Below, piece by piece: positions 1 to 61,146 of a stretch of DNA of 64,000 bases. Each line of letters opens with the position of its first letter. The first letter of the stretch is position 1. A model generated the notes under the pieces. It had not been told where the DNA came from. It did not search any database and worked only from the letters and a program-made list of their open reading frames with translations. The position numbers were made by a program, and so were the translations under genes. Source of the DNA: Deltaproteobacteria bacterium (GTDB lineage Bacteria; UBA10199; DSSB01; JACPFA01); NCBI GenBank assembly GCA_016183235.1, contig JACPFA010000016.1:2834-66833 (forward strand), given 5' to 3'.

Positions 1-537
1 TCTGCAACTTTGTCCCTTAATAATGGTGATGATCGCCAAGCAGAGATAGCCTACCGCGATGATGATCAAGAAGCAGTCGAACCTTACCTAGCCTATGGTA
101 GTGAAAACCCAAAATATTATTCCCCTAATCTTCTGTTTGGCATGGTTTCTTATTGGAGACCTCATTCAGGAGGGCACTCCTTATTTAACGGGATGGGGTT
201 CTCTGCTGCGCTGGGCTTTGCCAATTTAGATGGCTTAACTTTGGCAGCTGGCTTAGATTACAACCTTACCTCTCAACAAGAAATCTTGCCGACCCTTTCT
301 ACCTTTTACCAATTGAGTGATGACGTTTATTGGGAAAATAAATTTGGGATTGGCGTTGGGCTCCCTTTTTTGGACCCCCCCTACCCTACTGCAATGGGAT
401 CCTCAGGCTTGGGCGCTGAAATTGTGTTTGGAATAAAATTAAAAGGTGGGGTTCGGTTTAGTTTTCCCCTCGACGATCAACACCACAATGAAGATTACAT
501 CCCCAGTCTCTTTCTTGGAGTTGACTATTTTCTCTAA
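1..537 (+). CDS. hypothetical protein, 5'-truncated by the window edge; Gly/aromatic-rich C-terminal part, possibly an outer-membrane beta-barrel
   Basis: Frame 1 is open from base 1 (the listed ORF merely starts at TTG at 10). It ends GVDYFL*. Segments alternate hydrophobic and Gly-rich. Confidence 0.45.
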   Translation, partial: SATLSLNNGDDRQAEIAYRDDDQEAVEPYLAYGSENPKYYSPNLLFGMVSYWRPHSGGHSLFNGMGFSAALGFANLDGLTLAAGLDYNLTSQQEILPTLSTFYQLSDDVYWENKFGIGVGLPFLDPPYPTAMGSSGLGAEIVFGIKLKGGVRFSFPLDDQHHNEDYIPSLFLGVDYFL

Positions 538-566: not shown

Positions 567-583
567 GTATACAAAAAGTATAC
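567..583. promoter_or_regulatory. GTATAC-N5-GTATAC box, copy 1 (putative operator)
   Basis: Sequence is gtatac aaaaa gtatac, 83 bp upstream of the ATG at 666. TTGCAA at 555-560 plus 18 nt places the TATACA of the second hexamer as a -10-like element. Confidence 0.55.
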
Positions 584-665
584 ATAATTGCACCTTCTTT
601 AACTCCTTCAATCAATTCCTCATCACCGCTTAATCGATAATCAAGGCTTAGAAAGGAGATGTATT

Positions 666-962
666 ATGAAACATTTCATTATTAGCTTAGTATTAAGTAT
701 CTCGATTTTGGGTTTAGGGGCCTGTGGGGGAAGTAGTGCTGACCTCCCACCGCCAGAAGAGGAGGCCAAAGAAGCATTTCAGGCTGTCGCAACGCCTACG
801 GCTGTCGCAACGCCTACGGCTGTCATAACCCCTACACCAGAACCTTCACCTACTGCACTTCCAGATGGTGATTCCGATGGAATTCCGGATGCAGAAGATA
901 ACTTTCCTAATTGTAATGATTATGCGGCCTATTCGTGCTCGCAGAGGGTACGACAAGAATAA
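666..962 (+). CDS. small secreted lipoprotein with Pro/Thr linker and thrombospondin-type-3-like Ca-binding motif
   Basis: RBS aaaggag. Signal peptide with lipobox LGLGAC. Motif DGDSDGIPDAEDNFPNC. C-terminal C-x3-AY-x-C loop. Confidence 0.8.
   Translation: MKHFIISLVLSISILGLGACGGSSADLPPPEEEAKEAFQAVATPTAVATPTAVITPTPEPSPTALPDGDSDGIPDAEDNFPNCNDYAAYSCSQRVRQE
783..836 (+). repeat. in-frame 18-bp tandem repeat (2 perfect units plus 1 diverged) encoding AVATPT
   Basis: gctgtcgcaacgcctacg occurs twice, followed by gctgtcataacccctaca. Confidence 0.85.
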
Positions 963-985
963 TCGTCTATTTTATTTATAGAGAA

Positions 986-1022
986 GAATTGGCCTTGAGA
1001 CCAACATACTCAAGGCCAATTC
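986..1022 (+). terminator. putative intrinsic terminator of the 666..962 gene
   Basis: Perfect 14-bp stem gaattggccttgag / ctcaaggccaattc with a 9-nt loop, followed by a tattatt tract (weak T-run). Confidence 0.55.
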
Positions 1023-1041
1023 TATTATTAAAAAAAGTTCC

Positions 1042-1058
1042 GTATACCTTTGGTATAC
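1042..1058. promoter_or_regulatory. GTATAC-N5-GTATAC box, copy 2
   Basis: Sequence is gtatac ctttg gtatac, 101 bp upstream of the ATG at 1159. Confidence 0.55.
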
Positions 1059-1158
1059 GAAAACTTGGCGAGTCGGCATTATTCATGCGGCCAAAAATAA
1101 CTAAATCCCGATAAGGTTATTAGGACCAGCTAGTAACTTTAAATAAAGGGGTTTAGAT

Positions 1159-1518
1159 ATGAAGAACGTATTACTATTAAAGCTTGTCATGGTTGCCATG
1201 TTAATTTCGGGCGTAGTGGCTTGTGGAGATGCAGGCGACTCGGTTGATGTTGAGATTCCAAAGGCCCCTGTTGCCAGCACACCACCTGAGGTTACTGTTC
1301 CTACGCCACCGCCTACTGATGGGCCCATGACTCAAGAAGAAATGGTTGAATTTGTGGCTAGCTTGCCAAACGGTACCCTTGAAGCCCTGGCTGAATTAGG
1401 CAAGAGCAAGCAAAAGACGCGCCCTCCAGTGATTATTCAAATACCGGTGAAGCCCGTATGTCCAGAAGGAGAAATGCTCCCAGCCTATGATTGCACTTCT
1501 GCTACTATAGAAGAATAA
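1159..1518 (+). CDS. small secreted lipoprotein, paralog family (CPEG-x-LPAY-x-C loop)
   Basis: Signal peptide with lipobox SGVVAC. Pro-rich linker. C-terminal CPEGEMLPAYDC. Confidence 0.8.
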   Translation: MKNVLLLKLVMVAMLISGVVACGDAGDSVDVEIPKAPVASTPPEVTVPTPPPTDGPMTQEEMVEFVASLPNGTLEALAELGKSKQKTRPPVIIQIPVKPVCPEGEMLPAYDCTSATIEE

Positions 1519-1540
1519 AATAGGAATTAAAGGATTTTTT

Positions 1541-2020
1541 ATGAAAATTATCTCCGTGTTTACCAAGTTTTTATCGATTGTTTTATTATTATCAGGGTTC
1601 ATGGCTTGCGGAAGTTCAGACACCTTCATAGAAATTGTGATTCCAGAGGTTCCAGAGACTGAAACGACTGTATTTAATCCCAGTGAAGCGGCTGAAGAAG
1701 CACTCACTCCTGAACCTTCGCCTACGCCGTCTCCGAATGAAGAAGAAGAGCCTCTTGAGCGCTCTACTATTCCCGACTGCCCTGAAGGACCGCTACCTGC
1801 TTATAATTGTAAAACTGTCCACAAAGGGGGGAAGGACCCCAGCCGCACGCCTTCTGTCTCATTAGCCGCTGCTGCAAATACTACCTCCGTTGTTAAGGAA
1901 TATATGGCGGAACAATTGGCGAAATATCGTCTCGATGATTTAATATTCGATGATAATAACGCCGCACTGTCTGAGGCAACAACGCCTGAAATGGAACAAT
2001 TAGATTTAGAACTCAAGTAA
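1541..2020 (+). CDS. small secreted lipoprotein, paralog family (CPEG-LPAY-x-C loop)
   Basis: Signal peptide with lipobox SGFMAC. PEPSPTPSP linker. CPEGPLPAYNC. Confidence 0.8.
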   Translation: MKIISVFTKFLSIVLLLSGFMACGSSDTFIEIVIPEVPETETTVFNPSEAAEEALTPEPSPTPSPNEEEEPLERSTIPDCPEGPLPAYNCKTVHKGGKDPSRTPSVSLAAAANTTSVVKEYMAEQLAKYRLDDLIFDDNNAALSEATTPEMEQLDLELK

Positions 2021-2029
2021 GCACACATC

Positions 2030-2046
2030 GTATACGCGCAGTATAC
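2030..2046. promoter_or_regulatory. GTATAC-N5-GTATAC box, copy 3
   Basis: Sequence is gtatac gcgca gtatac, 115 bp upstream of the GTG at 2161. Confidence 0.55.
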
Positions 2047-2160
2047 AAAAACTCTGTTTTTTAAGGGCTCCCTAAAACTCTACCCCTTTCCAGAATCGAT
2101 AACAGCAATAAGGCACGGCAATACCATGGACCTATTGTTGGCCTTTCGAATGGGGTTTAT

Positions 2161-5100
2161 GTGGAATATGGATTGCGTGTACGGTTCAGTTTAGGCTTTT
2201 TTTTGATGCTCTGTCTTGGTTTACTTGGTTATTCCAAAGACCTTTACGCTTGTGCCGGTGTGTTTCCCAATTTTAACGAATGTTTGTGGGGCTTCGAAAA
2301 TAACGAAACAATTTCTCTTGTCACCCTTGAGGGCCCCGATGGCTCAAACCTTAGCCTAAAAGAAGGCTGGGTAGGCAAAGACATCCCTATGCTTACTTAT
2401 GCCAATCAACCGGAAAGTGCGGCAGGGGCTCAAGCTGCACGCATCCAATTTAAAAAAATTGCTAGCATCACAAGCACAAATAAAACGGGGCAAGCCTATG
2501 GGATTCGTCGCCAATTAAAAAGTGGAGAGTGGAATAAAATACAGGCCCTCAGCCTCCAATATAAAATAGGAAGCGATGAACCAACTTCTGCTTTGGTACC
2601 CCAAAATAATTTTGCCCCTTCTGATAAAGACATTTTTCAATTTTCGATTGTTTGCCAAGATGGAACGATCCAACCTCCCATCGGTATTGATGCCTTGTTT
2701 AATTGGAGTTTTACCAATAGCTATAAAAAAAGATGGCGCGATGATATAGCCAGCCTCAAGAAAAATATCCGTTGCTCGGGGGATCCTGAGCTGGGCCCTT
2801 ACACAGCGGACGCTCTCATTCTTTGGCTTGATATCCCAGAACCCATGACACTGTATTTAGACGATGTGCAAGGCATCTTTGATCAAGCCTTAAAATCACC
2901 TGCCGATTTTGCGATTGATCTGGGAGGCTCTTACACTGAGGCTTCGGCCTTTGCGGTTCTCAATTCTGTCGCCGATGAACTGCAACCAGCCCCTGAAGGA
3001 GCTATCATCAAGGCCTATGGTTGGGCAAAACCCCCTCAAGGTTCCATCAAATCTTTTGTTAACAATTATATAGGTGGCAATCATTATCCTTGGATCGTCG
3101 ACGCCGTGCAGGCAGATTTTATGCAATTTGTCCCTGCAAATTATTGGACAAACGCAGGCATGTCTCAAAAAGCCACCTTTCGGCTCGAATTACCTTATCA
3201 AAAACAATCAGAACAAAATTACACGGTTTTACTTCTCCTGATGGATACCGGTAATGCAAACGAATTAGGACGATCCCACTACATGGACCACAGCGAGTAT
3301 TATGCCAATTCGAGTGATGAAAATCCAGAAAAACGCCGCATTGAAATATTTCAAGAGGGCAACAAATTAACTTCTAAAAATGTTTCATCCCTTTGGAAAT
3401 CTGGCGGAAAACCAGACAAAGGCTGGCTAGAACAAATGATGTCAAAAGAACCCGATTATAATACAAATATCTTTGACTTTCATTTTGCTCACAAACGCCA
3501 ATGGGTTAGACTCGATTTTTCAATTAAAAAAGGAATTGGGAATCCCGAGGATGGCACAACGGTTGACATTGACCTAATGCCAGGAGTTTCTTTTCCGTTG
3601 GCTGCAATTTTTATTTTCAAAGACAAACAAACAGCCGATGATGACGAACTCACCCAACCGATCGAACAGTATTTTAAAATGTTTCAACCAAGTATCCCGC
3701 TAGTTTATTCACCCCCCTCCAAACAGGCATCGACACTAGCTCCGAAAAAGAATCTTGTGGTTTATCCTATTTCGGTTGGATCAGCGGTTGATCGATATGC
3801 TGCCCCGATCGATGAAGAAATCGAATGGGCCAATAACTTGGTTGATAACAAGTCTGCTCTCACTCTCAATGGTTTTGCTGGCGAGCGCGGGCAACTCGAA
3901 CTGAATATCTACGCTCAAACAGCAGTGAATGATCTTAGTATTACACTGTCAAACCTTGATGAACTTCCTCAACCCAAAATGGAAGGCGGACGTTATAGTA
4001 TTTATTCTGAGGGTCTTGGTAATCATGGTCTCAGCCCCTTCCTCATGAAAGTGCGCAGTTTTTTGCCGTTTAATGATTTCTCTTATTTTAAAATTCTTCA
4101 ATCCAAGCAAAACCGCCAAGTGTTATTGACCTGGGATTTTCCTAAACAGGTGAAAAGTGGAACTTACCAGGGAAATATCGTTATTAAAGGTGGTGGCACA
4201 ACTTTTTCTTACCCTCTGCAAATCAATATTTTGCCCTTTGCTTTAGAAACCCACTCGTTTGAGGGGCGTTTTTACAACGGAGACAATTATAAATCCTACA
4301 TTCACGAAATAAACCAACTCAATCAAATGAATTGTTTTTATACTCAAAGCAGTCACGCCAATATTTCGACCAACACCCCCGAACATAATTGTCAGATCGG
4401 CAGTAACTCCGTAACATTGGATGAAGCAAGAATTTCAGAAATTATCGATACAACAAAGCATCATTTTCGACGTGGTAACACGCCGATTTGGTTGACAAGC
4501 GTGGTTAATGATAAAAATCCTCAAGAAATTATTAACTGGGATCAGCCCCCCAATGCAAACATTGGAATAAAAAACCAAAGCCTCTGGTTTTATAATGACA
4601 TGGTTAACCCCAACATCCCACCGGCTTATTCGAATCAGGAAATACCGAGCTTTTTACCAAGCGACAATTCTCTCATCGTTCACCTTGACGCTCTCTATCA
4701 AACAGCCATGGTCTATGTGGCACGTAACAATAGTACTGGAAAGATTTGTAATAACGATTTTTTTGGCTCAGGTGTGGGAGACTTGCCTCCTTTAACGGAT
4801 AATTGTAGTTGGAAACTAGAACCGATGGGGGTTGGGGGCGGTATTTTCTTGGGCCCTAACGACTACCAAATCGTCTCTACTTTTTTACCCAAATGGATCC
4901 AAAACGTTACCCATTTTGTCAAAAAATATTGGAGCAATAAAGATATTTATTATGACTTTTGGGGCGAATTGGATAATGCGCAAAATCACCTTAACGATGT
5001 AGCGGAGTATAAAGAAGATTATTATTTAAGCGGAGTTCTTGATCTTGGGTGTCAATTTCGAGATTTCCTAAAAAAAGTCGACCCTCAGGCCAAAATCAGC

Positions 5101-6642
5101 TTACGCATCAATGGCCTGGTTGGTTTAGCCGTTGCCTGTAACTATTGCACGCCTGAAGGTAAGCCCGGGCATTACAAGCCCTTACCCTTTCCTATTGCAT
5201 CCTACAAAAACACCTCCCAAAATGGGCAAACGGTTAAAGAAAAATATTCCCCTGAACAGATGAAACAATTTTCTCAAGGAAACTTTTCTGCCATTGCGCA
5301 GGCATGTCTCAATAGTACGGATTCATCGCCAAAATTTAGGGTTTTTGCCAATCACGCGATGATTAAAAAATTTGAATACCAAGGCAAAGCGATAACCCCT
5401 ATTGAATTATTGTATCAAAGTAGTCGGGAAGTCGGCTTTTACAATCATGGCTATGGAAGATTTGGGCATGGGTTCTATGCCATGGGGGTTGCTTACAAAC
5501 TTTTACAAGACAATAAACAAGAAATCTCTGCCCAGGCAATGGCCTCTACGATTAAGATTGCACAAGAACATTACGCAAAAGAAGTGGGGGAATGTATTAA
5601 TGAACTCGATGGGGACTCGGGTCGTACAACACCCGCGCAAGCCTGCCCCAGTGGCATTGTTTCTACACCAGGGTGGGAGGGCATGTACCAAGGCATGTCC
5701 GATGCTCACCATGTGATTACACTATTCGATTTACTATCAAAGGCTGAAACGAAGCTTGACGCAGCATTGCCCACAACCCTTCGTGGAGAGCTTGACGCCA
5801 TACTTTCCCAAATACCCATAGCAGATGTCAAAGCACTACCTCCTGAGGCTATTGGTGAAATGGCGGGCTGGGATGGCCCCCAAATGGATAAGGTGCGGCT
5901 TTATTTAGCAAACTATATTTTAAAGATAAAAATCCTGCTGGGGGATTTTGAAAAACAAAATTTATCAGATTTCGATGGCGATGGTATTTTAACGGAAAAT
6001 GATAATTGCCCCCTCATGGCTAACCACAACCAGGCCGATGAAGATATGAATGGAATTGGGGATGCCTGCCAGTACACTGCCATTGTACCTAAAATGCCAC
6101 CTAAACCAGAAACTATAGGTGAAATTACAAAACCACCTTCTTATGAGTTGACGCTCGACGTTATAAAATCATATGCGAATTTCTATGAACAACTTAATTT
6201 CAACAAACACGCTGCTCAAAAACCAAATTGCCCCCCTGAAACTGTTTTAGTGGGCGACCTATGTTTCAAATTCCCTACTACGTCAAACTCAAATGACAAT
6301 GAACCTCTGGAGTCGAATAACAATGAATCTCCGGGGAATGAACCTAACGATTGTGCTATGGAGCTTGAGTCATGTGATAACATCGACAACAATTGTAATG
6401 GTCTGGTTGACGAAAATTGCGATTGCTCGAGCGGAGACGAACAACTGTGCATTCTTCCCCTTGAAGAATACAAACCTGGGATTCAACAATGCATTGATAA
6501 GCAATGGAGCACTCATTGTGAAATGACCGACGATGACAAAGCTAACAATGGAATTATTTTCAAAGATGAGCAGGACAAAGCCGAACCACTGCATGACTCT
6601 CCAAGCATAATGGGCGGTGGTTGTTCACTCCACAAAGGATGA
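2161..6642 (+). CDS. giant secreted protein (1493 aa) with thrombospondin-type-3 repeat, Cys-rich CxxCxxC-type motif and a tail-less GGGCSL C-terminus
   Basis: GTG start. N-terminal signal and possible lipobox (LYAC). Motifs DFDGDGILTENDNCPLMANHNQADEDMNGIGDAC and CDNIDNNCNGLVDENCDC. The first ~1250 aa have no motif I recognise. Confidence 0.85.
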   Translation: MEYGLRVRFSLGFFLMLCLGLLGYSKDLYACAGVFPNFNECLWGFENNETISLVTLEGPDGSNLSLKEGWVGKDIPMLTYANQPESAAGAQAARIQFKKIASITSTNKTGQAYGIRRQLKSGEWNKIQALSLQYKIGSDEPTSALVPQNNFAPSDKDIFQFSIVCQDGTIQPPIGIDALFNWSFTNSYKKRWRDDIASLKKNIRCSGDPELGPYTADALILWLDIPEPMTLYLDDVQGIFDQALKSPADFAIDLGGSYTEASAFAVLNSVADELQPAPEGAIIKAYGWAKPPQGSIKSFVNNYIGGNHYPWIVDAVQADFMQFVPANYWTNAGMSQKATFRLELPYQKQSEQNYTVLLLLMDTGNANELGRSHYMDHSEYYANSSDENPEKRRIEIFQEGNKLTSKNVSSLWKSGGKPDKGWLEQMMSKEPDYNTNIFDFHFAHKRQWVRLDFSIKKGIGNPEDGTTVDIDLMPGVSFPLAAIFIFKDKQTADDDELTQPIEQYFKMFQPSIPLVYSPPSKQASTLAPKKNLVVYPISVGSAVDRYAAPIDEEIEWANNLVDNKSALTLNGFAGERGQLELNIYAQTAVNDLSITLSNLDELPQPKMEGGRYSIYSEGLGNHGLSPFLMKVRSFLPFNDFSYFKILQSKQNRQVLLTWDFPKQVKSGTYQGNIVIKGGGTTFSYPLQINILPFALETHSFEGRFYNGDNYKSYIHEINQLNQMNCFYTQSSHANISTNTPEHNCQIGSNSVTLDEARISEIIDTTKHHFRRGNTPIWLTSVVNDKNPQEIINWDQPPNANIGIKNQSLWFYNDMVNPNIPPAYSNQEIPSFLPSDNSLIVHLDALYQTAMVYVARNNSTGKICNNDFFGSGVGDLPPLTDNCSWKLEPMGVGGGIFLGPNDYQIVSTFLPKWIQNVTHFVKKYWSNKDIYYDFWGELDNAQNHLNDVAEYKEDYYLSGVLDLGCQFRDFLKKVDPQAKISLRINGLVGLAVACNYCTPEGKPGHYKPLPFPIASYKNTSQNGQTVKEKYSPEQMKQFSQGNFSAIAQACLNSTDSSPKFRVFANHAMIKKFEYQGKAITPIELLYQSSREVGFYNHGYGRFGHGFYAMGVAYKLLQDNKQEISAQAMASTIKIAQEHYAKEVGECINELDGDSGRTTPAQACPSGIVSTPGWEGMYQGMSDAHHVITLFDLLSKAETKLDAALPTTLRGELDAILSQIPIADVKALPPEAIGEMAGWDGPQMDKVRLYLANYILKIKILLGDFEKQNLSDFDGDGILTENDNCPLMANHNQADEDMNGIGDACQYTAIVPKMPPKPETIGEITKPPSYELTLDVIKSYANFYEQLNFNKHAAQKPNCPPETVLVGDLCFKFPTTSNSNDNEPLESNNNESPGNEPNDCAMELESCDNIDNNCNGLVDENCDCSSGDEQLCILPLEEYKPGIQQCIDKQWSTHCEMTDDDKANNGIIFKDEQDKAEPLHDSPSIMGGGCSLHKG

Positions 6643-6647
6643 TGACA

Positions 6648-8573
6648 TCATTTTAGAAAAGTTTGGATGAGTTGATCGATTTGCGGGTTGGGTTGGCCGT
6701 TGACTAAGGCCTTGCCGTCTTTGTAACTGAACTCCATCGATAAGGTATCGGCTTTGCGATCAATCACTGCATAAGGTGTTATCATCATCAAGCTACTTGA
6801 AGTGCCAGGTTTGATTTTATCTAAAAACTTTTCGAAAGCACTCAACGAATTGATCTTATTAAGATAAGATATTTCTAATTTTTGCCAAAGATAAGGCAGC
6901 ACTTTGCTTTGAACTGCTGGGTTTTTGCTTAAAGGCTCGCTCGTGAGTTCTTCGGGGTTTAAATTTAAATCTTTAAGATTAATGCTGGTCTTAAGATCGA
7001 TCTCATCAGAGAACCATTGTGGCCTTAGATCCACCATTAAATAGAGATTAACCCCATATTGACCCTTTAACAAAGTTTGAAAAAAAGGTGCCATGTCTCT
7101 GTTGGGTTGACTCTCCGCCAGCATGCCTTGGGCATAACTGCGAATCGATTGCCAAGGATATTTAAAACCCATCTTTAGTTTTGCTGATAAATTTTCTAAA
7201 GTACCAACCGGGAGCTTGGGCAGATTGGCGCTGCCCGCAGCACTGATCATATATTCCAAGCCATTTTCGTTCAGGTCAAGGGCTACCGTAAGGTCTTTCA
7301 AATTAAAATTCGATTCACCATCCTGATAACTCAATTGGGCAACTCCAAGTTGAGATTTCCATTGGAGTGGGTATTGAGCAAGTGCGGTTAAGTAAAAAGG
7401 CCATAGTTCCCCAACCCCTAATTGGTTTTGAAAGGTTTTGCCTAAATAACGATAATAAGCGCTCAAAAAATTTGCATAAGACATGCCAGGATAAATGCTG
7501 GCAGAAGTTGCACGAACTTCTCCTAATTCCCATTCGCTAACTTTTTTCTCATGATCGGCCGTTTTTATTTTGAAGCCTTTGGCACTCATATCGGCATTAA
7601 CCGAAAACCCATTGGGGCTTTCTTCTAGAAGCACAAGAGCTTTCATGGGTTTGATATCAAGCGATTGGTTTTTTTCTTTGTTGGTATAATGTAGGCCGTC
7701 CCATGAGCCTTCAGCTTTTGAAAACATGGGGGCAAATTCTGCAATCCAAGTCGATAGATTATCTAAAAGCATTAAAGGATTCTTGGGATCTTTTAAAACG
7801 CCATCGAATACCGACTTGATTTCTTGGGTTATTTCTTGGCGTCGCGTGATTGATGCATGTTTAATCGAACCTAGATAATTAAAATGCAGCCCCTTTAGGG
7901 GAATCATTTTAGGGGTAGCATCTTCTTTTAACAATAGATCGATGCTTCGAATATCACCTACTACTTCCCAATGATCTCTTTGTTCACGAGTCACCGATTT
8001 TAGAACCAAAGCAAGTTTGTTGAATTGAACTCCGTTTGAGATTGCCGCAGCCCCTTCGGGGCCTCGCAATGACAAAAAGCCTAAATTAAATTTGACTTCC
8101 CACTGATCAGGATTTTCATTATCGAAGGATAATTTTAAATTGGAAAATTTAAACTCCTTTTTAGGTTGAGGAATGACAATGTCGCGAATGGTTAATTGCG
8201 AAATTTTACTGGGGGATTTGAGATAAAAAGCAACCCCGGCTAACTTAAGCTTATCAATTTTATACTCATCGATCGTTAGTAAAGCATGTTTGCGATCCCA
8301 AGGGCAGGTCCGTAATTTAGCCCCAACCACTTGGAAGGGGGGGGGTTGTAAAAATTGTAAAGTGATGGGCTGAACACCAAAGGAAAGATAAGGTAAAAAG
8401 AGGCCCTTGGTTCCTGGTTCAGCAGGCGGGAGGGTGATTTTTAAACCCATGCCTTGGTAAATGCCGCCTGATTGAAATGCCTTGAGACGGCTTTGCATTT
8501 GGTAGCGGGTCCAAAGCAGGCCTGCTACCACGATCAATAAGATAATAAGAAAAATTTTGAGAAACTTTTTCAT
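6648..8573 (-). CDS. hypothetical membrane-anchored protein (641 aa)
   Basis: Long ORF with an N-terminal anchor MKKFLKIFLIILLIVVAGLLW. No recognisable catalytic motif. Contains a C9 homopolymer at codons ~77-79. Confidence 0.75.
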   Translation of the reverse strand: MKKFLKIFLIILLIVVAGLLWTRYQMQSRLKAFQSGGIYQGMGLKITLPPAEPGTKGLFLPYLSFGVQPITLQFLQPPPFQVVGAKLRTCPWDRKHALLTIDEYKIDKLKLAGVAFYLKSPSKISQLTIRDIVIPQPKKEFKFSNLKLSFDNENPDQWEVKFNLGFLSLRGPEGAAAISNGVQFNKLALVLKSVTREQRDHWEVVGDIRSIDLLLKEDATPKMIPLKGLHFNYLGSIKHASITRRQEITQEIKSVFDGVLKDPKNPLMLLDNLSTWIAEFAPMFSKAEGSWDGLHYTNKEKNQSLDIKPMKALVLLEESPNGFSVNADMSAKGFKIKTADHEKKVSEWELGEVRATSASIYPGMSYANFLSAYYRYLGKTFQNQLGVGELWPFYLTALAQYPLQWKSQLGVAQLSYQDGESNFNLKDLTVALDLNENGLEYMISAAGSANLPKLPVGTLENLSAKLKMGFKYPWQSIRSYAQGMLAESQPNRDMAPFFQTLLKGQYGVNLYLMVDLRPQWFSDEIDLKTSINLKDLNLNPEELTSEPLSKNPAVQSKVLPYLWQKLEISYLNKINSLSAFEKFLDKIKPGTSSSLMMITPYAVIDRKADTLSMEFSYKDGKALVNGQPNPQIDQLIQTFLK

Positions 8574-8657: not shown

Positions 8658-9302
8658 TTAAAAATGCACACCTATGGCTCCCATCAGCGACAACTGATAA
8701 TCAAAGCCACCTCTAATAATCAGGGTGTCCACTCCAGCTACATCTTCACGTTCTTCCTGTAAGAAAAGTAGATCGTTGGCAAAATCTAAAGCAATAAATA
8801 GGGCACGATAATTAAGCTCGACCCCTCCACCCAAGCTCACCCCGCCACCAAAGGCCCCCACTTTGTCATCATCGACTGGCGCATTGACAAACAAACCATG
8901 AGCAACCCCACCCACTTTTACATAGGGATAAATTTTTACGTTTTTATCTTTTTCGGCTTGGCTAGTTAAAAAACTAACTTTGGCGTTGAGGCGAATATTT
9001 AAGGCATGCTCGCGCCCTTGCCCGCCCGAGGTCTGACCTGTGCTGGTGGAATAAGCAATTTGAAGCTCGGGGGCTATCCAATTGGTAATGTTATAGCCCA
9101 GCCCTAAGCCAAAACCAGACTCAAGATCACCGCCAAAGCGTATACCATTGTCTACATTGGTGTCGTGATCGAGCAACATCATACCACCCATTCCATAGAA
9201 GAAAAACCCTGTGTGATTGGTGCGCACGTCAAAGGCTTGCACGGGTTTTATTAAAAATAGAACCCCCACTACAAAAGAAATGATAATGAATGTTTTCTTC
9301 AT
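8658..9302 (-). CDS. outer-membrane beta-barrel protein (OmpW/OmpA-like porin-family fold)
   Basis: Signal peptide ...LIKPVQA. Gly/aromatic alternating strands. C-terminal ...GAIGVHF with terminal Phe. Confidence 0.75.
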   Translation of the reverse strand: MKKTFIIISFVVGVLFLIKPVQAFDVRTNHTGFFFYGMGGMMLLDHDTNVDNGIRFGGDLESGFGLGLGYNITNWIAPELQIAYSTSTGQTSGGQGREHALNIRLNAKVSFLTSQAEKDKNVKIYPYVKVGGVAHGLFVNAPVDDDKVGAFGGGVSLGGGVELNYRALFIALDFANDLLFLQEEREDVAGVDTLIIRGGFDYQLSLMGAIGVHF

Positions 9303-9441: not shown

Positions 9442-9942
9442 ATGTTAACTATGCCTCGACCTAAACGAATTTTAATTCCGAATGCTTATTATTATATCTC
9501 TAATGAGAGCAAGGGGAAGAGATCTGCCTTTAGCTCTGCTACCGACAAAAAATATTTTACCGACCTCCTTCATGAGATCGCCAAAGAGTTCAAACTAAAA
9601 GTTTTAGAATATAGTTTGACCCGCCAGGGCTATCATTTGTTGATCCAGATGCACGGGAAAAACCTTCCCCTGGCTTTGCGTTCGCTTAATGGTATCTATA
9701 CCCAAGATTACAATCGAAAGTACCAAAAGAAAGGGTCTTTGTTCAAAGGGCGTTACAAATCGGTGCTTATGAGTGAGAGGCCCTATGTTACACAGATTGC
9801 AAATTATATCCGTAGTTTTGCCAAAAAATCTTTGCTTTCCAAGGTGAGTGAAGACGTTTTGCAAAGGCTCAACCCTAAAAAATGGCCTAGTGTTTTGGGG
9901 AGTGAAAAGTTTTTGAAGAAGATGAAGAAGAAGACGAGATAA
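9442..9942 (+). CDS. REP-associated tyrosine transposase (RAYT, IS200-like Y1 family), probably degenerate
   Basis: By-eye alignment to the COG1943/RAYT pattern: PRPKRI..., LNGIYTQDYNRKYQKKGSLFKGRYKS, ANYI (Tyr kept). The HUH position reads G-Y-H instead of H-x-H, and the usual NPVRA tail is missing. The start may be the ATG at 9451. Confidence 0.75.
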   Translation: MLTMPRPKRILIPNAYYYISNESKGKRSAFSSATDKKYFTDLLHEIAKEFKLKVLEYSLTRQGYHLLIQMHGKNLPLALRSLNGIYTQDYNRKYQKKGSLFKGRYKSVLMSERPYVTQIANYIRSFAKKSLLSKVSEDVLQRLNPKKWPSVLGSEKFLKKMKKKTR

Positions 9943-15078: not shown

Positions 15079-18000
15079 TTAGGCAGATGCAGAGATTTTG
15101 GGCAAGAAGATTCGGCCTAGCAACAGGAATAAGAGGAACAACGCCCACCCGCCCCAAGGCAAGCCATGGAATGCCGTTGGTTGCAATTGACAGCCGCTGC
15201 CGGCAAAACCATTGGTATCACCACCCTCGCCGCTGGGGCTAGGGTCTGAAGGAGAAGCGGTTTCGTTGAGCGAAAAATAGACCACCTCCCCGGTAGAGGT
15301 CATGGTGTAAATCTCTTGGGCTCCATCAGTATTTTGGTCCATGAGTAAAAAGTCGCTACCTATTTGCGCTTGTTCGGTTTCTCCTACTAATTGTTTAGCA
15401 TTAGAAATATCCGCAGCAAAAGAACTAGAACCATAGAAAACGTAAATAACCCCCACATCATCTTGTTCACAAGGTGCGCCCACCATTAAATCATCAAAAC
15501 CATCGCCGGTAACGTCCCCCATCGCAAGTGCTTGGCCAAAACAGGCGCTTGATTCATGGTCAAAAACGAAACTCGCGTTGGCTGCGGTAAAATTGTAATC
15601 GGCCGTTAATGGGCCTAAAAATCCATACACCCAACCGTTGTTTAAGCTTAAGACCAAATCTATTTTGCCATCGCCGTTCAGATCGCCTTGCGCCAGGGCC
15701 TGAACTTGCCCACCCAAATTAATGGTGTGTTCAATCTCTTCACTAGAAAAGCGCTCGCCCATGACCCAAGCGCGCCCGGCTTCGAGCAAGGGCACGGTTT
15801 CAACCGAGGTAAATGGGTCAGCACTTGATACAAACGTCAGCTGTGGATTCATGGCCAGGTTGTCGGGCCCCAATAATAATTGGGGGGGCTCACCCGGCAC
15901 TAAAGAAACCAAGAATAAAGAATAAATAGGATAGGCTTCACTACCTTCGATGAGACCAATCAATTGGGCGTGGTTATTATAAATGTAGGCGAAACCATGC
16001 TCGCCCGCCCCGGGGGCAGTCATGAGAAATTCGGAAATCCCGTCGCCATCAACATCGCCCGAGATTAAGTATTTGCCAAGCTCATCGGTGGGATTAAGGG
16101 CGCGGATTTGATGAAAACCGATGGACTCATTCGCTAGGCTAAGGCTCGAAGGGGTTTGTAAATTTTCTTCTTTGGCAACGTGGCTGCTCACCGGCTCGCG
16201 CAAGGTCAAATTACCTTTTAACTCAGTCCACGGCACACTTGATAAATACACGGTGTTGGCACAAGGATCCACAATGGCCAGATAATCTTGCTGGCTCACT
16301 TCGACATTATAATCTTGGCATTCCACCGCAATGCTGACCTCGCCAACTTTTAATTGAGTAACTTTAGTACCATCGTCTGCGGTGGTGTGACTTATATAAA
16401 TGGGCGTGCCGTGTGCATTGGAGACAAAGGGATTTTCCAAAAAACCTTGTTTGGGATTGGCCAACATCACGGTGATCTCGGTAGAAGCCGCAGCCGTGTT
16501 GCCTTGGGAATCGGTTACCAGCAAGGTGAGGGTATCTTTACAAAATTCTTGGCCTGCCGCAAAAACAGCAGAAGTCGCCGGCGTATCGGGTGTTAAGGTA
16601 CCACAACCACCCCGTTTAACAACCCACTGGTAATTAAAAGGCGCCACCCCAGAAACCTCGGCTCTTAGTTTAACCGTCTTACCTGCATCGAGGGTGATCT
16701 GCTTAGGCAAGGTAACACGTGGTTTGGGGGTTTCATCGTTATCCACCAAGGTAACCCGATAGTTGGTTTGTGAACCTAGGCTGGCTTGAAGCGGATTTTC
16801 TAAAGTCAAAAGAATAGTTTCGTCGGGCTCATCCACGGCATCGTCGATAATATTGATCAAAAAAGTACCCTTCGTTTCGCCCGCTAGGATGGTTACGGTA
16901 TCAGACAAGACCGAATAATCTATGCCCGCACCTTGTGCTGTCCCTGACACTGTAACCGAAACGGTTACAGGTAAGGCCGAAGGGTTGTTCAACTCCACGG
17001 GAATGTTCAATGTAGCCGAGCCTTCCCAATGCGATTGACTGGCCTTGGAAAAATAAACTTGCGGAGGCCGATCATCATTTTGCAAAGTCGCTACACCGAG
17101 GTCGTCAACGATGTTTGCGTCTTGGGTGGCAGTGGTTAAGCGCAAACCAAATGCTTCATCGGGTTCATAGAGCGTGTCCCCTTTTATCGTAACCGTGAGG
17201 CTTGCTTGAGTGCTCCCTGCCGCAATTTCCACAACGGCGGCAGTCTCTTCATAATCAATCCCCGCCTGTGCAGTACCCGCTTCGGTTTGATAGCCGATGC
17301 TGATGGGCAGCGGATAAACGTGGGAAAGGGTTATGGTAAATTGGGCGGTGGTGGAATTGGAATCGCCTTCGTTAAGGGTGACATCATCAATACTCACTTC
17401 CGGCGGAGCCACCCATTCTACGGCCCCCCTATCCACGCCTTCCCCTTGCGGGCGCTCGGTACCATAAATATCGTAAGTGGGCGCGTTTGAATCATCCCCT
17501 TGGTCAACAATGGTTATAGATCGAGGGGTCAGGTCTAAAATTTGATAGGTGTTGCCAACCACCGCAAAGCTGGTGAGACTATTATCACTTAAAACGTTGA
17601 GTTTATTAACCGTGTTACCACGAATAAAAAAGTAATGGGGTTTGGCATCACCGGTATCGGCGATCAAAAAGAAACCCTTCCATTGATCAGGGGTCCAGGT
17701 TTGAGTAGCATCGGTTAAGGTTGTGGCGCTAATCTCGGTGGATATTCGGCTAGCCAGCACCTTAAACTGAGGATTGTCGTTGGTTCCGTTACTTGCCACC
17801 GTAAGATTGTTGAGCTGCCTGCCTCGGTAAAAAGCATAGCTTATACTATTCAACACCGTGTTGTTACGAATGAGGTTGGTGGTGTTTTGGCTCCCATAAA
17901 TTCCAATGCGGCTGTTGAGAATAATATTGTTTTGCAAAAGCCCTTGCGTAGAATTGCCTGAATAAATACCATAAAAGCTTGTGGCATCGTCGTCGGCTAA

Positions 18001-19581
18001 GACAACGTTACCATCAATCAGCGGGGAGGCTAAATTTTCAATAAACAATCCACTGCCCCCGTTGGCTTGAACCACCAGATTTTTAATAACCAGTCGCTGA
18101 TCGATTTCGCTGCCTCGCAAATGAAACACCTGTTTTTGATTGGGCCTGGCTTGCACAATCGCCATGCCATCACCCCGCACACGATCGGCCCGCACGGTGA
18201 TGAGCCTACCCGCAAAGCCAAGCGGGGCAGGGCCTACATCGTGAACCCCACCTTTTAGCCAAACTATATCACCGCTCTTGGCCATGGCCATGGCATAACG
18301 CAGGCTTGCGCAAGCCACCGCAACACAATCTCCATCATCTATTCCCAATAATGCATCTACTTGTAACCGCCGGTTTAATTCTAAAACAGAATCGCTGGCC
18401 TTTACTGCACCCCGATCGGCGGCACCACGGGTATTGCCATAAACATCCAGGGACGGCAAACCAGTTAAGGTCCCCGTCCCTGCTACTGGGGAATTGGAAT
18501 GGATAGCGAAATCTGTTATCACAAAGGCTGCTCCCAAAGTGCCAAAGGCTGTGCCTTCCCAGACCTCGAGCATGCTATTGTTGCTACGCACTGTGAGGGT
18601 GTTTTGGTTATTCCCCATAATATAAAAATATTGCGCACCGCCGGGGCGATTGGCATTGGGTGTCACAAAATAACCTTGCCATTGATTGTCTGCCCAATCG
18701 GCACCGGCAAAACTTAAGGTCGTAGCGGTCAAGCCAGAAGAAAGCCCCGCCGTTAAAACATTGAACAAAGGATCGTTGGTATTGTTAGTCGAGTCACTCG
18801 AACAATCGGTATCATCAAAATTGTCGTCGTTGGCAAAACTCGTGTTATAGGTGGAAGGAAACGTCGCCGCACAATCGTCAAAACCGTTGTCGTAATTATT
18901 ATAAGCCAAATTATTGCGCCGGTTGCCGTAAGAAAAGGCATCGCCCTTGGCATTTACCACCGTATTGTTGGCAATAATATTATTGGCGTTGTCGTCTCCC
19001 AAAATACCCCAATAAGATTCTAAAATAATATTGTTGCGGATGACGAGATCTTTGCTGCCCCAACCATAAATGCCACGATACCCACTACGATTATCATCGC
19101 CAATGATGATGTTGTTTTCGATGATGGGAGAAGCATTGCCATTGACCACTAGGGCGTGGCCGGCTTTGGCTTTAAGCACGAGTTGACGTAAGACCGTTGT
19201 GTTGTTGATTTGGGGTTTGTTAAAAAGAAATAATTGAGCAAGGTTTGAACTTGCCTCGATGAGAGTTTGGTTTTCACCTCGCAAGCCACTCCCTTGAATA
19301 ATAAGATTTTTGGTATTGGGATTAATCGTCGCAGTAATCGAACAAAGCCCGGGGGCAATTTGAACCGTATCGCCAAGGCCAGCTTGCATGACGGCACGCG
19401 AAATAGAACGGCAGACCTTCGTTGTGTTGTTGCTACAATCGTTGGTATCGCTGCCGCTTTGGCAATCAACATAACGGATTAAAGCTTGAGCAGTGGCTGA
19501 ATAAATGAAACTGGTGGACAAGAAAATTAAAAGGCCCACGCCCCTCAGCCGATAAAGCTGTCGCACCCATCCCCTAACCAT
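15079..19581 (-). CDS. giant secreted protein (1500 aa): duplicated parallel beta-helix modules, two Calx-beta domains, a PKD-like domain, FG-GAP/VCBS repeats, and a Cys-containing C-terminal sorting tail
   Basis: Signal peptide. NNII/NNTV beta-helix repeats occur twice (aa ~35-400 and ~405-700). Calx-beta pattern (...GTAQAGIDYEE...EPDEAF, ...GAGIDYSV...EPDETI). GDVDGDGISEF, GDLNGDGKIDLV and GDVTGDGFDDLMVGAP. Tail GSGCQLQPTAFHGLPWGGWALFLLFLLLGR. Confidence 0.9.
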   Translation of the reverse strand: MVRGWVRQLYRLRGVGLLIFLSTSFIYSATAQALIRYVDCQSGSDTNDCSNNTTKVCRSISRAVMQAGLGDTVQIAPGLCSITATINPNTKNLIIQGSGLRGENQTLIEASSNLAQLFLFNKPQINNTTVLRQLVLKAKAGHALVVNGNASPIIENNIIIGDDNRSGYRGIYGWGSKDLVIRNNIILESYWGILGDDNANNIIANNTVVNAKGDAFSYGNRRNNLAYNNYDNGFDDCAATFPSTYNTSFANDDNFDDTDCSSDSTNNTNDPLFNVLTAGLSSGLTATTLSFAGADWADNQWQGYFVTPNANRPGGAQYFYIMGNNQNTLTVRSNNSMLEVWEGTAFGTLGAAFVITDFAIHSNSPVAGTGTLTGLPSLDVYGNTRGAADRGAVKASDSVLELNRRLQVDALLGIDDGDCVAVACASLRYAMAMAKSGDIVWLKGGVHDVGPAPLGFAGRLITVRADRVRGDGMAIVQARPNQKQVFHLRGSEIDQRLVIKNLVVQANGGSGLFIENLASPLIDGNVVLADDDATSFYGIYSGNSTQGLLQNNIILNSRIGIYGSQNTTNLIRNNTVLNSISYAFYRGRQLNNLTVASNGTNDNPQFKVLASRISTEISATTLTDATQTWTPDQWKGFFLIADTGDAKPHYFFIRGNTVNKLNVLSDNSLTSFAVVGNTYQILDLTPRSITIVDQGDDSNAPTYDIYGTERPQGEGVDRGAVEWVAPPEVSIDDVTLNEGDSNSTTAQFTITLSHVYPLPISIGYQTEAGTAQAGIDYEETAAVVEIAAGSTQASLTVTIKGDTLYEPDEAFGLRLTTATQDANIVDDLGVATLQNDDRPPQVYFSKASQSHWEGSATLNIPVELNNPSALPVTVSVTVSGTAQGAGIDYSVLSDTVTILAGETKGTFLINIIDDAVDEPDETILLTLENPLQASLGSQTNYRVTLVDNDETPKPRVTLPKQITLDAGKTVKLRAEVSGVAPFNYQWVVKRGGCGTLTPDTPATSAVFAAGQEFCKDTLTLLVTDSQGNTAAASTEITVMLANPKQGFLENPFVSNAHGTPIYISHTTADDGTKVTQLKVGEVSIAVECQDYNVEVSQQDYLAIVDPCANTVYLSSVPWTELKGNLTLREPVSSHVAKEENLQTPSSLSLANESIGFHQIRALNPTDELGKYLISGDVDGDGISEFLMTAPGAGEHGFAYIYNNHAQLIGLIEGSEAYPIYSLFLVSLVPGEPPQLLLGPDNLAMNPQLTFVSSADPFTSVETVPLLEAGRAWVMGERFSSEEIEHTINLGGQVQALAQGDLNGDGKIDLVLSLNNGWVYGFLGPLTADYNFTAANASFVFDHESSACFGQALAMGDVTGDGFDDLMVGAPCEQDDVGVIYVFYGSSSFAADISNAKQLVGETEQAQIGSDFLLMDQNTDGAQEIYTMTSTGEVVYFSLNETASPSDPSPSGEGGDTNGFAGSGCQLQPTAFHGLPWGGWALFLLFLLLGRIFLPKISASA

Positions 19582-19719: not shown

Positions 19720-21603
19720 GTGCCGATTAATTATAGATTGAGGGGGAGATTCGGGTTGAGGGTGAGCAATATTTCTAATCTTCCCAAGGGCTTACGTGAA
19801 TATCTCGTGGCCCAAGATTTTCAATTATCTGATAATATCCAACCTAGCACGGCTAATCCACAAGTGGGTGATCGCCCCGACGATGGCAAGGTTTCTTTTT
19901 TGATTCAAGGCCGTCAATCGTCTGTCTATCTTGTAGTGGGGCGTAATGATCGAGTGGGGGTATTTAGAGATTTTTCACTATTAGGGTTTCCCCTAACTTA
20001 TTTCCCGGTTCATATTGGTGCTGTTAAAGATATTTCCCGTTGGGCAGCAAAGATTGATCCCCCCACCGGACCTGATTACTGGAATACTGCTATTGCCGGT
20101 ACAGAAAATCGAGCTTCACGAAATGCAAACCGCGGAATAACCCTAGCTACGGGAGTTGCCCCAAAGGGTTATCTTGAAACCAGCAGTCTCCGTGAATATT
20201 CAGAGCTACCCATAGGCCACCCTGCCAAAGATTTTTTAGAAGGGCTTTTACAAAAATTTGGTTCTGAAATTGATACTACCGCTCGCAATATTCGAAATCT
20301 AGATGAACGGCGTGCCAACGCGGCTCACATCAATAACCGTCATTTCCCAATGTTGTGGGACATGAAATCAACCAAGGCCCATTACGAAGCCGGACAAATC
20401 ATTGCCGAACAATTTTCCTACATTTTGACTCAAGATAAAGTTCAGGTGATATACCCGGGGGCTGGAGGCAATATTGGCGCTTTGGCCACGGCTATGGCCT
20501 TGGTGGACCATGGTGCAAAGCAAGTTAAATTCATCATGACAGAAATTGAAATTCCAGGAAAACCCACCACTGTTCCGACTGATGCGCTACAAACGCTCCC
20601 GGCATGGATGGATGCCAATCCCCAATTGCAGGGTAACCTAACTTATGTTCGTCATCCAGGTTTAGCAAATGGATACCGTCTGCAAGCACAATTTTATTAT
20701 AAAGGGGCACGGATCGAACTGGAATATGCCATCAATGATAGCCCTGGTGATCTTTATTTTCATCCAACAGATATTAACAACGCCGATGTTGTGTTAGTGC
20801 ATGATCCCTACAGCGAGGCTGGGAACCCTGAAGCTTTATTACTCAAGCAAATTTTACCTGAACTTAAACCATCCCATTCTCCTAAAGCTATCGTGATAGC
20901 TAACGAACTCGATAATAATCAAACCCTTGAATATGCTTATCTACGCCCTTCCGTGCTGGCCCTCCAAGGTTGGAAGGTCCCGGCTAGTTTTGGCCATGGC
21001 GGGATGTACCCCTTTCGCAACAAACGGGTAGACATTGATTATTGGTCGATGGCGGAAATTGGGCAGGCACATAGTGGCTCGGGGTTGGTGGTATCTTCCC
21101 AGAACGGTTATTGGCAGGCTTTGAAAAATAAAGAACAAATCCAATTATGGGTTGATTTTTGTAGTATGGCGGGTGGGATTGAGGCTGAGAGAACTGGCGA
21201 CCCAGGCGCTCCAGAAAGAGATTTTATGTTACGTCAAACCTATTGGAAGCGAAAGAATATAACCAAGCTTGAGCCTGAAAAAATTTATGCCTTTCTGAAT
21301 GAATACCTTCCTCAATTGACAGCAACCGAAAGCGAAGTGGTGGCGCTTGTGTTGGCACGATTGGTTCTCAGCAATTTGCTTGATGATATGGGCTTCACTG
21401 ATGATGAAAAACACGCTTTGTTAAATATCCCTGCACCGTTGAAACATGCAATGTTTTCTGCTTTAAAAAAGTATCGTATCCTAAAAGAGCCTTCCCACCA
21501 ATGGGATCCTCTTACCACAAATTCTTCTCTGGATTCACAGCGCCAAGGCCTCATTAATAAAATTGATCAAATGATACTTCGGCTACAAAGGATCTATTAC
21601 TAA
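19720..21603 (+). CDS. hypothetical protein (627 aa); central region faintly resembles a Rossmann/class-I methyltransferase fold
   Basis: Long ORF. VIYPGAGGNIGAL ... TEIE ... VLVHDPY (weak, eye-only). The start is uncertain: GTG at 19720, or TTG at 19756 after gaggggga. Confidence 0.6.
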   Translation: MPINYRLRGRFGLRVSNISNLPKGLREYLVAQDFQLSDNIQPSTANPQVGDRPDDGKVSFLIQGRQSSVYLVVGRNDRVGVFRDFSLLGFPLTYFPVHIGAVKDISRWAAKIDPPTGPDYWNTAIAGTENRASRNANRGITLATGVAPKGYLETSSLREYSELPIGHPAKDFLEGLLQKFGSEIDTTARNIRNLDERRANAAHINNRHFPMLWDMKSTKAHYEAGQIIAEQFSYILTQDKVQVIYPGAGGNIGALATAMALVDHGAKQVKFIMTEIEIPGKPTTVPTDALQTLPAWMDANPQLQGNLTYVRHPGLANGYRLQAQFYYKGARIELEYAINDSPGDLYFHPTDINNADVVLVHDPYSEAGNPEALLLKQILPELKPSHSPKAIVIANELDNNQTLEYAYLRPSVLALQGWKVPASFGHGGMYPFRNKRVDIDYWSMAEIGQAHSGSGLVVSSQNGYWQALKNKEQIQLWVDFCSMAGGIEAERTGDPGAPERDFMLRQTYWKRKNITKLEPEKIYAFLNEYLPQLTATESEVVALVLARLVLSNLLDDMGFTDDEKHALLNIPAPLKHAMFSALKKYRILKEPSHQWDPLTTNSSLDSQRQGLINKIDQMILRLQRIYY

Positions 21604-23993: not shown

Positions 23994-24048
23994 CTATAAG
24001 ACGGTCACGGGGGTAGCGTTTTGTTCCTAACTAATAGGAGGCACACTT

Positions 24049-31272: not shown

Positions 31273-31304
31273 TTAATGAAAAGTATAGTATGACAGGGAA
31301 AAGT

Positions 31305-31371
31305 ATGACGAAGGTACGATTTTGCTACTGTTTATCAATCACTAATCGTCCGAAAATCATACCTCCGTCAT
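31305..31371. mobile_element. MITE-like element, copy 1 (~67 bp, ~19-bp terminal inverted repeats ATGACGAAGGTACGATTTT / AAAATCATACCTCCGTCAT); core inverted relative to copies 2 and 3
   Basis: atgacgaaggtacgattttgctactgtttatcaatcactaatcgtccgaaaatcatacctccgtcat. Confidence 0.8.
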
Positions 31372-31409
31372 AAATTGCGCTTTTCATAAATCATCATTAA
31401 CAACTTTTT

Positions 31410-34725: not shown

Positions 34726-34727
34726 TT

Positions 34728-47723: not shown

Positions 47724-47738
47724 TTGAGGGGGTACTCT

Positions 47739-57908: not shown

Positions 57909-57975
57909 CCAACTAGCAACGGTTCTTCCTAACTGCCGATAAAATAAACTGAATTTACTTTACCCGGGGGGAAAG

Positions 57976-61133: not shown

Positions 61134-61146
61134 AGTGTCATGCCCC

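Follow-up and report, generated by a model that had tools for sequence, protein, structure and literature searches.

A paired GTATAC box at a fixed distance from a CGATAA element precedes lipoprotein and orphan genes in an uncultured 'Deltaproteobacteria' lineage

What could be the role of an identical, symmetric pair of hexamers that recurs ahead of neighbouring genes for secreted proteins of obscure ancestry? The question is raised by a stretch of 64,000 nucleotides (nt; hereafter, the window) of contig JACPFA010000016.1 (positions 2,834 to 66,833 of the forward strand; GenBank assembly GCA_016183235.1). Its host is an uncultured groundwater 'Deltaproteobacteria bacterium' known as a metagenome-assembled genome (MAG), the Tgt protein of which is MBI2335883.1 (100% identity) and the locus tags of which begin with HYU97_; the organism is also present in the Logan assemblies of SRR12113xxx. 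The motif GTATAC-N5-GTATAC (GTATACNNNNNGTATAC), here termed the box, occurs in four exact copies: at 567–583 (S1; GTATACaaaaaGTATAC, with a t before and an a after it), at 1042–1058 (S2; GTATACctttgGTATAC), at 2030–2046 (S3; GTATACgcgcaGTATAC) and at 62754–62770 (S4; it serves the minus strand, on which it reads GTATACtagatGTATAC). All four had been noticed in a preliminary description of the window, which took them for an operator, and they are indeed far beyond chance: 100 dinucleotide shuffles of the window did not yield a single exact box (expectation ~0). A degenerate search, tolerating two mismatches, added no site within the 64-kb window.

The centres of the hexamers are exactly 11 bp apart at every site, while the spacers between them differ from box to box and are mutually unrelated, and the box ends 83, 101 and 115 nt before the start codon at the three plus-strand sites, all as described before. 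Each hexamer is self-complementary, which a random hexamer is with a chance of 1 in 64, and the symmetry extends outwards: in a set of nine sites (eight independent ones plus the ortholog L115, see below), a pyrimidine (Y) precedes the box in all nine and a purine (R) follows it in eight. The box is exact at eight of the nine, the other one having one mismatch. Symmetric hexamers within symmetric outer flanks suggest that the reader of the site is probably two-fold symmetric as well; the earlier idea of a dimer of dimers is reasonable, each hexamer being palindromic and a single GTATAC being the site of a DipR dimer (PMC11472048). Non-orthologous copies have only the 12 box bases, the Y/R flanks and the CGATAA element described below in common, unlike a mobile repeat (miniature inverted-repeat transposable element or repetitive extragenic palindrome). 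The absence of longer similarity in the flanks, already remarked upon, thus holds and, judged by these shared columns, the box does not belong to any longer repeated element. The proposed avoidance of the hexamer outside the boxes does not: the window contains one unpaired GTATAC (9140–9145), where none had been seen, and dinucleotide shuffles predict ~6 copies, or 5.6 with the boxes set aside, while a 4th-order Markov model predicts 2.1 outside them, rather than the 15–20 estimated by eye. GTATAC ranks only third of the 64 palindromic hexamers by depletion in the window, and there is therefore no avoidance specific to it.

The preliminary description missed that each of the four boxes is followed 49–51 nt downstream by CGATAA or, at S4, CGATGA. 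With the sites anchored on the box and oriented to the gene, the distance is 51 nt at S1 (CGATAA at 635–640, plus strand, 25 nt before the ATG at 666), 50 nt at S2 (1109–1114, plus strand; local sequence tcCCGATAA), 50 nt at S3 (2097–2102, plus strand) and 49 nt at S4 (CGATGA at 62699–62704, minus strand, 25 nt before the ATG at 62673). The chance that a hexamer is common to three out of four random sites was p ~0.01 in a simulation with the real window sequence, in which a shared offset within 1 nt was accepted at any offset and in either orientation. Over the nine-site set, CGATAA is present at eight sites, S4 being the one that deviates.

Further sites were found in the same genome, of which ~90 kb of sequence was covered, and in a relative. 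Contig L001 prolongs the window upstream and carries a fifth site, S0 (GTATACcgatgGTATGC), which differs by one mismatch (it tolerates GTATGC) and is followed, after 51 nt, by CGATAA. Since S0 stands ahead of a 750-amino acid (aa) gene, four consecutive transcription units carry the module. A scan of metagenomes with a composite pattern that requires CGATRA yielded at least four contigs of the lineage, all from one sample, Ga0209211, most of the other metagenome matches listed being chance hits or other systems. Two of these four contigs carry orthologs of window sites: in L143, the sequence is 94% identical to that of S3 over 448 nt, with an identical box; in L115, it is 83% identical to that of S1 over 165 nt and conserves the hexamers, the 51-nt distance and CGATAA, while the spacer has changed from aaaaa to aaaag and much of the interval is altered. 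The two others, L097 and L177, provide new sites; their tetranucleotide correlations with the window (0.90 and 0.95) rank third and first among 148 loci and indicate that they belong to the same lineage as the window.

The box in L097 precedes a gene for a PD40 beta-propeller lipoprotein. A search with this protein alone gave as its best match MBI2336137.1, from the window's own genome (46% identity), and upstream of the corresponding gene (locus L189) there is a perfect box (1792–1808) followed, after 51 nt, by CGATAA. L189 was retrieved by protein similarity and not by a DNA pattern, and the prediction of a box was borne out. In the L097/L189 pair, the segment from the box to CGATAA is well conserved, whereas the 5′ leader and the protein are not, which provides the strongest evidence that the whole segment is functional and not the box alone. 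S0, S1–S4 and L189 are the boxes of the window genome that were not chosen by a pattern containing CGATRA; S0 and L189, in particular, were not picked via CGATAA and confirm the partner motif independently. In all, the module precedes at least six genes for lipoproteins or unknown proteins in the window genome.

Outside the lineage, the composite pattern behaves differently. The representative genomes of GTDB, among which the window genome is absent, gave 60 single matches in unrelated taxa, approximately the chance level; only one of them, L033 (MAG HKST-UBA10199), is plausible, with two lipoprotein genes after the box, but how closely it is related to the window is uncertain, given a tetranucleotide correlation of only 0.50. 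Two loci with 67–70% Tgt identity, L186 and L187, have no box in 15–21 kb, a length too short to call the box absent. The box may be missing from GCA_040960375.1 and SRR28385527. L186 (70% Tgt identity) also carries, at 1317–6820, FHA/YscD-like and faint type III secretion system needle-like genes beside tgt that have no equivalents in the window. The exact motif had no match in the searchable literature, and the SRA runs were not mentioned there either. To judge from its recurrence and conservation, the unit of box and CGATAA appears to be a real, conserved, lineage-restricted cis-regulatory module.

Where does the module stand with respect to the promoter? The box-linked CGATAA is 25–59 nt away from the start codon, with a Shine–Dalgarno sequence in between. 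At S1 and S4, it is exactly 25 nt from the ATG, a distance which leaves room only for a −10 element and a short leader; from this placement, CGATAA functionally can only be a putative −10 element with a short leader after it. Among the eight independent sites, the conserved columns comprise the pyrimidine, the 12 box bases, the purine and (t/c)CGATAA, and nothing else, there being no conserved column between box and CGATAA to serve as a −35 element. A scan for sigma-70 promoters found none in the box-carrying gaps and none overlapping any box. The suggestion that the distal hexamer is −10-like (TATACA or TATACT) and that the box overlaps the promoter consequently fails: S2 reads TATACG there, and the box is situated ~50 nt upstream of a −10 element of another, sigma-28-like type. 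From the centre of the box to the first base of CGATAA, the distance is 58–60 bp; if CGATAA occupies about −12 to −7, the centre falls at ~−71, always within 1 bp. Such a position is more in line with a site for activation from upstream than with a classical operator. Of the operator role proposed in the preliminary description, the conserved, protein-binding-like site shared by units for secreted proteins and lipoproteins is retained, while the classical operator position is not.

Promoters of sigma-28 (FliA/SigD/WhiG) have the consensus TAAA-N15-GCCGATAA, in which CGATAA is the core of the −10 element GCCGATAA. The window contains five intergenic copies of CGATAA, all of which point at a start codon ~22–59 nt away; the two that lack a box are perfect GCCGATAA (48281–48288, plus strand, the full sigma-28 −10 consensus, with the ATG at 48310 ~21 nt further on; and 57935–57942, plus strand, 33 nt before the ATG at 57976). 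A near-canonical sigma-28 promoter, TAAA-N16-GCCGATAA, likewise without a box, faces gene 19720–21603, its −10 element at 19548–19555 (plus strand) falling within the annotated 5′ end of the divergent open reading frame (ORF) 15079–19581. Another sigma-28-type −10 element without a box, GCCGATAT at 35490–35497, is located upstream of a gene. At the box promoters, the pair of bases before CGATAA is variable (at, cc, ct, ac or tt), TAA[AGT]-like words occur only at N17–18 in S3, L097 and L189, and neither TAAA nor TTAAG is found 15–16 bp upstream of the −10 element. Without the GC extension and a correctly spaced TAAA, these promoters have the features that usually distinguish activator-dependent ones.

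We consider it moderately probable that box and CGATAA together form a composite promoter: bound near −71, a regulator of symmetric build would activate a sigma-28-type core promoter devoid of a −35 element. The comparisons support a box that behaves as a sequence-specific protein-binding site common to co-regulated units for secreted proteins and lipoproteins, and most likely a single regulator docks there, which would switch these genes on together. In this scheme, a two-fold-symmetric regulator would bind Y-GTATAC-N5-GTATAC-R on one face of the helix, the simplest binder being a pair of dimers, or else one dimer that reads the hexamers 11 bp apart. From ~−71 (site centre ~59 bp upstream of CGATAA), it would recruit or stabilise RNA polymerase carrying a sigma-28-type factor at a core promoter that consists of the −10 core CGATAA alone and lacks a −35 element that could be used. 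The rigid spacing of 49–51 nt would keep regulator and polymerase on the same face, in the style of class I activation, and the module would thereby co-regulate a group of genes, for lipoproteins and orphan proteins, that are specific to the lineage. The binding of a protein to the box, the family of that protein, its activating effect and the FliA-like nature of the sigma factor are what we infer from these patterns of sequence and spacing.

Several observations weigh against this scheme. The 'GC' of GCCGATAA is not kept and TAAA is missing at the canonical distance, so that the assignment to sigma-28 comes down to one 6-mer. The spacing at L097, L177 and L033 is not independent evidence, these sites having been found with a pattern that requires CGATRA. 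No regulator gene adjoins any site. Complete invariance and high affinity are seen more typically at the sites of repressors, and both precedents for GTATAC recognition are repressor operators (that of DipR and the inferred BrnA-like antitoxin operators).

We deem unlikely the alternative of a repressor operator or an insulator, where a tight tetramer of the GntR/FadR or ribbon-helix-helix (RHH) type, seated upstream of the core promoter, would silence the units by preventing upstream polymerase contacts or would stop read-through from the gene that ends shortly before. The GntR/FadR repressor DipR has a single GTATAC as its experimentally shown site (PMC11472048), an identical GTATAC-N5-GTATAC is present between the −35 and −10 elements of BrnT-like toxin–antitoxin operons in many Chloroflexi contigs, the perfection of the sites suggests high affinity and, at S1, S3 and L189, the box begins only 4–30 nt past the stop codon of the preceding gene. 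With 49–51 nt to the −10 element, however, the box overlaps no promoter element, and the missing −35 element points to activator dependence; S4, moreover, lies between divergent genes, where there is no read-through to block, and a roadblock has no need of a strict helical phase. An RNA or single-strand hairpin (a stem of 6–7 bp and a 5-nt loop), terminating or stabilising the upstream transcript, would account for several boxes close behind a stop codon; the folding energies are −5.7 to −7.5 kcal/mol (−11.7 at S2, the minus strand of which was flagged as terminator-like), and the outer Y...R flank often adds one more pair. We nevertheless regard it as highly improbable: the stems are A/U-rich and weak, the relevant strand has no U-tract at S1, S2 and S3, S0 and S2 are already preceded by proper GC-rich terminator hairpins, and S4 has no upstream convergent transcript. 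The sites present neither the GC-rich stem with a U-tract of an intrinsic terminator nor the covariation of a structured RNA; their stem is invariant without compensatory changes, which argues for a readout of sequence and not of structure, and CGATAA at a fixed distance would go unexplained. We give equally little credence to the hexamers being targets of a GTATAC-specific DNA methyltransferase (orphan or part of a restriction–modification system), paired methylation sites that would act as an epigenetic switch for surface-protein genes. GTATAC is a palindrome in the style of type II restriction–modification systems, absolute invariance would fit an enzyme-like specificity, and GTATAC is mildly under-represented outside the boxes (1 versus 5.6 or 2.1 expected); but several other palindromes are as depleted, S0 tolerates GTATGC, methylation alone explains neither the exact N5 pairing nor the conserved outer Y/R flanks, and the genes seen in the window include none for a methyltransferase.

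Another explanation starts from the sequence upstream of the box. In all three comparisons of the window genome with the Ga0209211 relative (L115, L097 and L143), the homologous stretch breaks off 0, 1 or 6 nt ahead of the box. The gene upstream of the L115 site differs from the one ahead of S1; L097 has, compared with L189, an insertion of 1.49 kb (L097:1566–3056) that stops 1 nt short of the box; and in L143, the hairpin that precedes S0 is fused to a point 6 nt before S3, the four intervening genes being missing. The 508-aa gene downstream of S4, its box, the divergent 549-aa gene and an 86-aa ORF are, furthermore, absent from the syntenic locus L187 (67% Tgt identity), which carries a 297-aa gene in place of the 508-aa/549-aa pair (window 60873–63010 plus L004 compared with L187:5650–8888; GGDEF ... 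NTP-transferase, APH, tgt). It seems very unlikely to us, despite the agreement of the three junctions and the insertion of that gene pair relative to L187, that the box is in the first place the 5′ boundary of movable gene cassettes, a target of recombination or insertion with a secondary link to promoters. The neutral gap before the box measures only 3–29 nt, so that surviving rearrangements must break there; selection alone could explain the breakpoints. The junction in L143 does not link one box to another, the boxes have no recombinase gene next to them (7 kb lie between them and the IS200-like gene at 9442), and the fixed CGATAA finds no explanation. A 5-bp spacer with arms of 6–7 bp is, to our knowledge, unlike the known sites of tyrosine or serine recombinases. 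The junctions do mean that, judged by gene content, the regulated genes are clearly accessory and subject to fast turnover.

As to the junctions themselves, the insertion in L097 starts with a direct repeat (atccgaatgac, two copies) and a 23-bp inverted repeat (gacggaggtacgattttaggacg ... cgtccgaaaatcgtacctccgtc) and contains a gene for a 425-aa lipoprotein. In L143, remnants of a 228-aa gene and of a terminator hairpin (448–547; homologous to L001 652–691 and 820–865) abut the S3 box, and a defence island with Schlafen/AlbA_2-HATPase-winged helix-turn-helix and AbiEi/AbiEii genes is located at 584–4774.

The genes behind the boxes are for the most part lipoproteins or orphan proteins in rearrangement-prone regions. 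S1 serves a gene for a 98-aa lipoprotein (666–962, plus strand; lipobox LGAC), after which a terminator hairpin occurs at 986–1022. Downstream of S2, a two-gene unit (1159–2020, plus strand) specifies paralogous lipoproteins of 119 and 159 aa with the common motif CPEG..LPAY.C. S3 precedes an orphan gene for a secreted or lipoprotein-like product of 1493 aa with a thrombospondin type-3 repeat (2161–6642, plus strand); a homolog search with this protein returned only the protein itself and, hence, no distant ortholog for promoter comparison. S4, situated between divergent genes, serves the minus-strand gene 61147–62673, which the preliminary description had overlooked; this gene, for an orphan protein of 508 aa without a signal peptide, and the downstream 86-aa ORF together span 60873–62673. 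The 3′ end of the 750-aa gene lies in the window (10–537, plus strand), the whole gene being L001:1007–3259 and its promoter being outside the window (L001:888–961). Its product has no signal peptide, a Pro/Ser-rich N-terminus and no match in Pfam or PDB; an HG...C pair (LGAHGNHNG/ILESCSNG) recalls caspase-like peptidases, and the Gly/aromatic-rich C-terminus, ending in YFL, is beta-barrel-like.

Searches of all neighbouring genes against Pfam and NCBIfam revealed no regulator gene adjoining any site, nor was a GntR or other helix-turn-helix gene found beside one; Rfam gave no match for the window, and sequence searches of PDB gave none either. A 132-aa ORF of the window (44526–44924, minus strand) with a winged-helix-like motif (RKVYRRGRVFYELTEKS) and without a Pfam match could be a small DNA-binding protein. 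Elsewhere, the window includes a gene for an IS200-like (Y1) transposase (9442–9942), an MNT/HepT toxin–antitoxin pair (34273–35144) and an RHH-like (DUF6364) and PIN pair (47466–48176). The section 24000–32000, with a GC content of 0.50 versus ~0.43 elsewhere and a strongly negative GC skew, spans an ORF of 2407 aa with a C-terminal alpha/beta-hydrolase domain and, from this composition, may be foreign DNA.

The code Y-GTATAC-N5-GTATAC-R, N49–51, CGATAA is precise enough to list co-regulated surface lipoproteins and orphans, and this in a lineage known from metagenomes only, in which homologs are lacking for nearly all of these proteins. If the sigma-28 link is true, Bdellovibrio would be joined by a second case of a flagellar-type sigma factor at surface-protein genes, here with an added upstream activator site standing in for the −35 element, and the tie to rearrangement-prone, lineage-specific genes suggests how acquired genes join an existing programme. 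A bolder reading, quite doubtful in our opinion, is that the invariant box and, at a rigid distance from it, the −10-only element represent a new class of promoters in this uncultured lineage of 'Deltaproteobacteria'. Acting from −71, either a factor devoted to this task or an additional part of the sigma-28-type holoenzyme that reads DNA would take over from −35 recognition, and the compact, self-contained promoter module would travel with rapidly exchanged surface-protein cassettes, which would explain the junctions at the 5′ edge of the box.

How does the module compare with known systems? Most attack-phase genes of Bdellovibrio, including many for non-flagellar surface or secreted proteins, are driven by promoters with the FliA consensus TTAAG-N16-CCGATA (PMC3627812). 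The box promoters resemble sigma-28 promoters by their putative −10 core, CGATAA, 25–59 nt before the start codon, with full GCCGATAA elements elsewhere in the window; they differ in lacking the GC extension and a TAAA or TTAAG at canonical spacing, and in carrying an extra invariant upstream box, undescribed for sigma-28. The arrangement hexamer-N5-hexamer is that of the boxes of OmpR/PhoB-type regulators, such as (T/G)GTTTA-N5-(T/G)GTTTA for PhoP, TGTWAH-N5-TGTWAH for WalR, and the PmrA box. Two hexamers, a periodicity of 11 bp (within the 10–11 bp of that class), one helix face and promoters without a −35 element are common to both; OmpR/PhoB boxes, however, consist of asymmetric units in direct repeat, which as a rule adjoin the −35 element or take its place, whereas our hexamers are self-complementary, with Y...R flanks, and are centred at ~−71. 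The PIP (plant-inducible promoter)/hrpII box of Xanthomonas and Ralstonia, TTCGB-N15-TTCGB, precedes a −10-like YANNNT by 30–32 bp, and the PmrA element of Legionella and Coxiella is found upstream of Dot/Icm effector genes. Like these, the present box is bipartite, keeps a rigid distance to a −10-like element, marks a secreted or accessory regulon and predicts its members; sequence and spacing differ from those elements, which are read by AraC/OmpR-type regulators, and no link to a secretion system is shown here.

DipR binds, as a dimer, a single 5′-GTATAC-3′ (PMC11472048), the same palindromic hexamer with the same GT..AC core. In that betaproteobacterial system, the single hexamer overlaps the −35/−10 elements or the transcription start, a catabolic cluster is repressed and dipR lies beside its targets; at the boxes, the site is not over the core promoter and no regulator gene is beside the targets. 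Conserved clusters of three GTATAC, e.g., GTATACaggccGTATACcgtaaaccgGTATAC, in Cupriavidus (L010, L014, L055, L157) and Pseudacidovorax (L024, L028, L036, L048, L063) are, by analogy, probably DipR-type GntR operators of dipicolinate catabolism clusters; DipR-like recognition probably also accounts for the Cupriavidus matches of the GTDB scan. Iteron-like tandem 11-bp GTATAC repeats of up to six copies (e.g., GTATACAAACC) occur in low-GC/Bacteroidetes contigs (L058:1055–1115, L069, L153, L046, L166).

Two short palindromic subsites one turn apart, suited to a dimer of dimers, are also a trait of Arc/Mnt/CopG RHH operators. Among the matches listed, the identical 17-bp pattern occurs in at least ~25 BrnT-like toxin–antitoxin operons of Chloroflexi-type contigs (L011, L017, L020, L060, L107, L129, L131, L151, L163 and ~15 more), each consisting of a BrnT-like toxin of ~95 aa (PF04365, E 2e-7) and a protein of ~79 aa with an RHH-like C-terminus; by analogy, the binder there is expected to be the RHH antitoxin. 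The promoter of these operons reads TTGACA-N3-GTATACAnnTTGTATAC, and CGATGA is coding sequence there. Their sites are situated between the TTGACA −35 element and the −10 element of the regulator's own operon, in keeping with autorepression, whereas ours are 50 nt upstream of the −10 element and ahead of unrelated cargo, namely, lipoproteins and orphans; the only RHH-like gene in the window (47466–47723), paired with a PIN toxin, has no box. In class I activation of the CRP type, sites are centred at −61.5, −71.5 and so on. The box shares with these a symmetric site, half-site centres 11 bp apart, a centre at ~−71 and a fixed helical phase, although CRP half-sites are not palindromic and their positions vary among promoters, while the box keeps to one distance throughout. 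As the 11-bp periodicity also matches OmpR/PhoB and CRP-type sites, it cannot assign the putative regulator to a family. The pairing of an upstream site specific to one regulon with a core promoter for an alternative sigma factor is a familiar kind of arrangement and not a new category.

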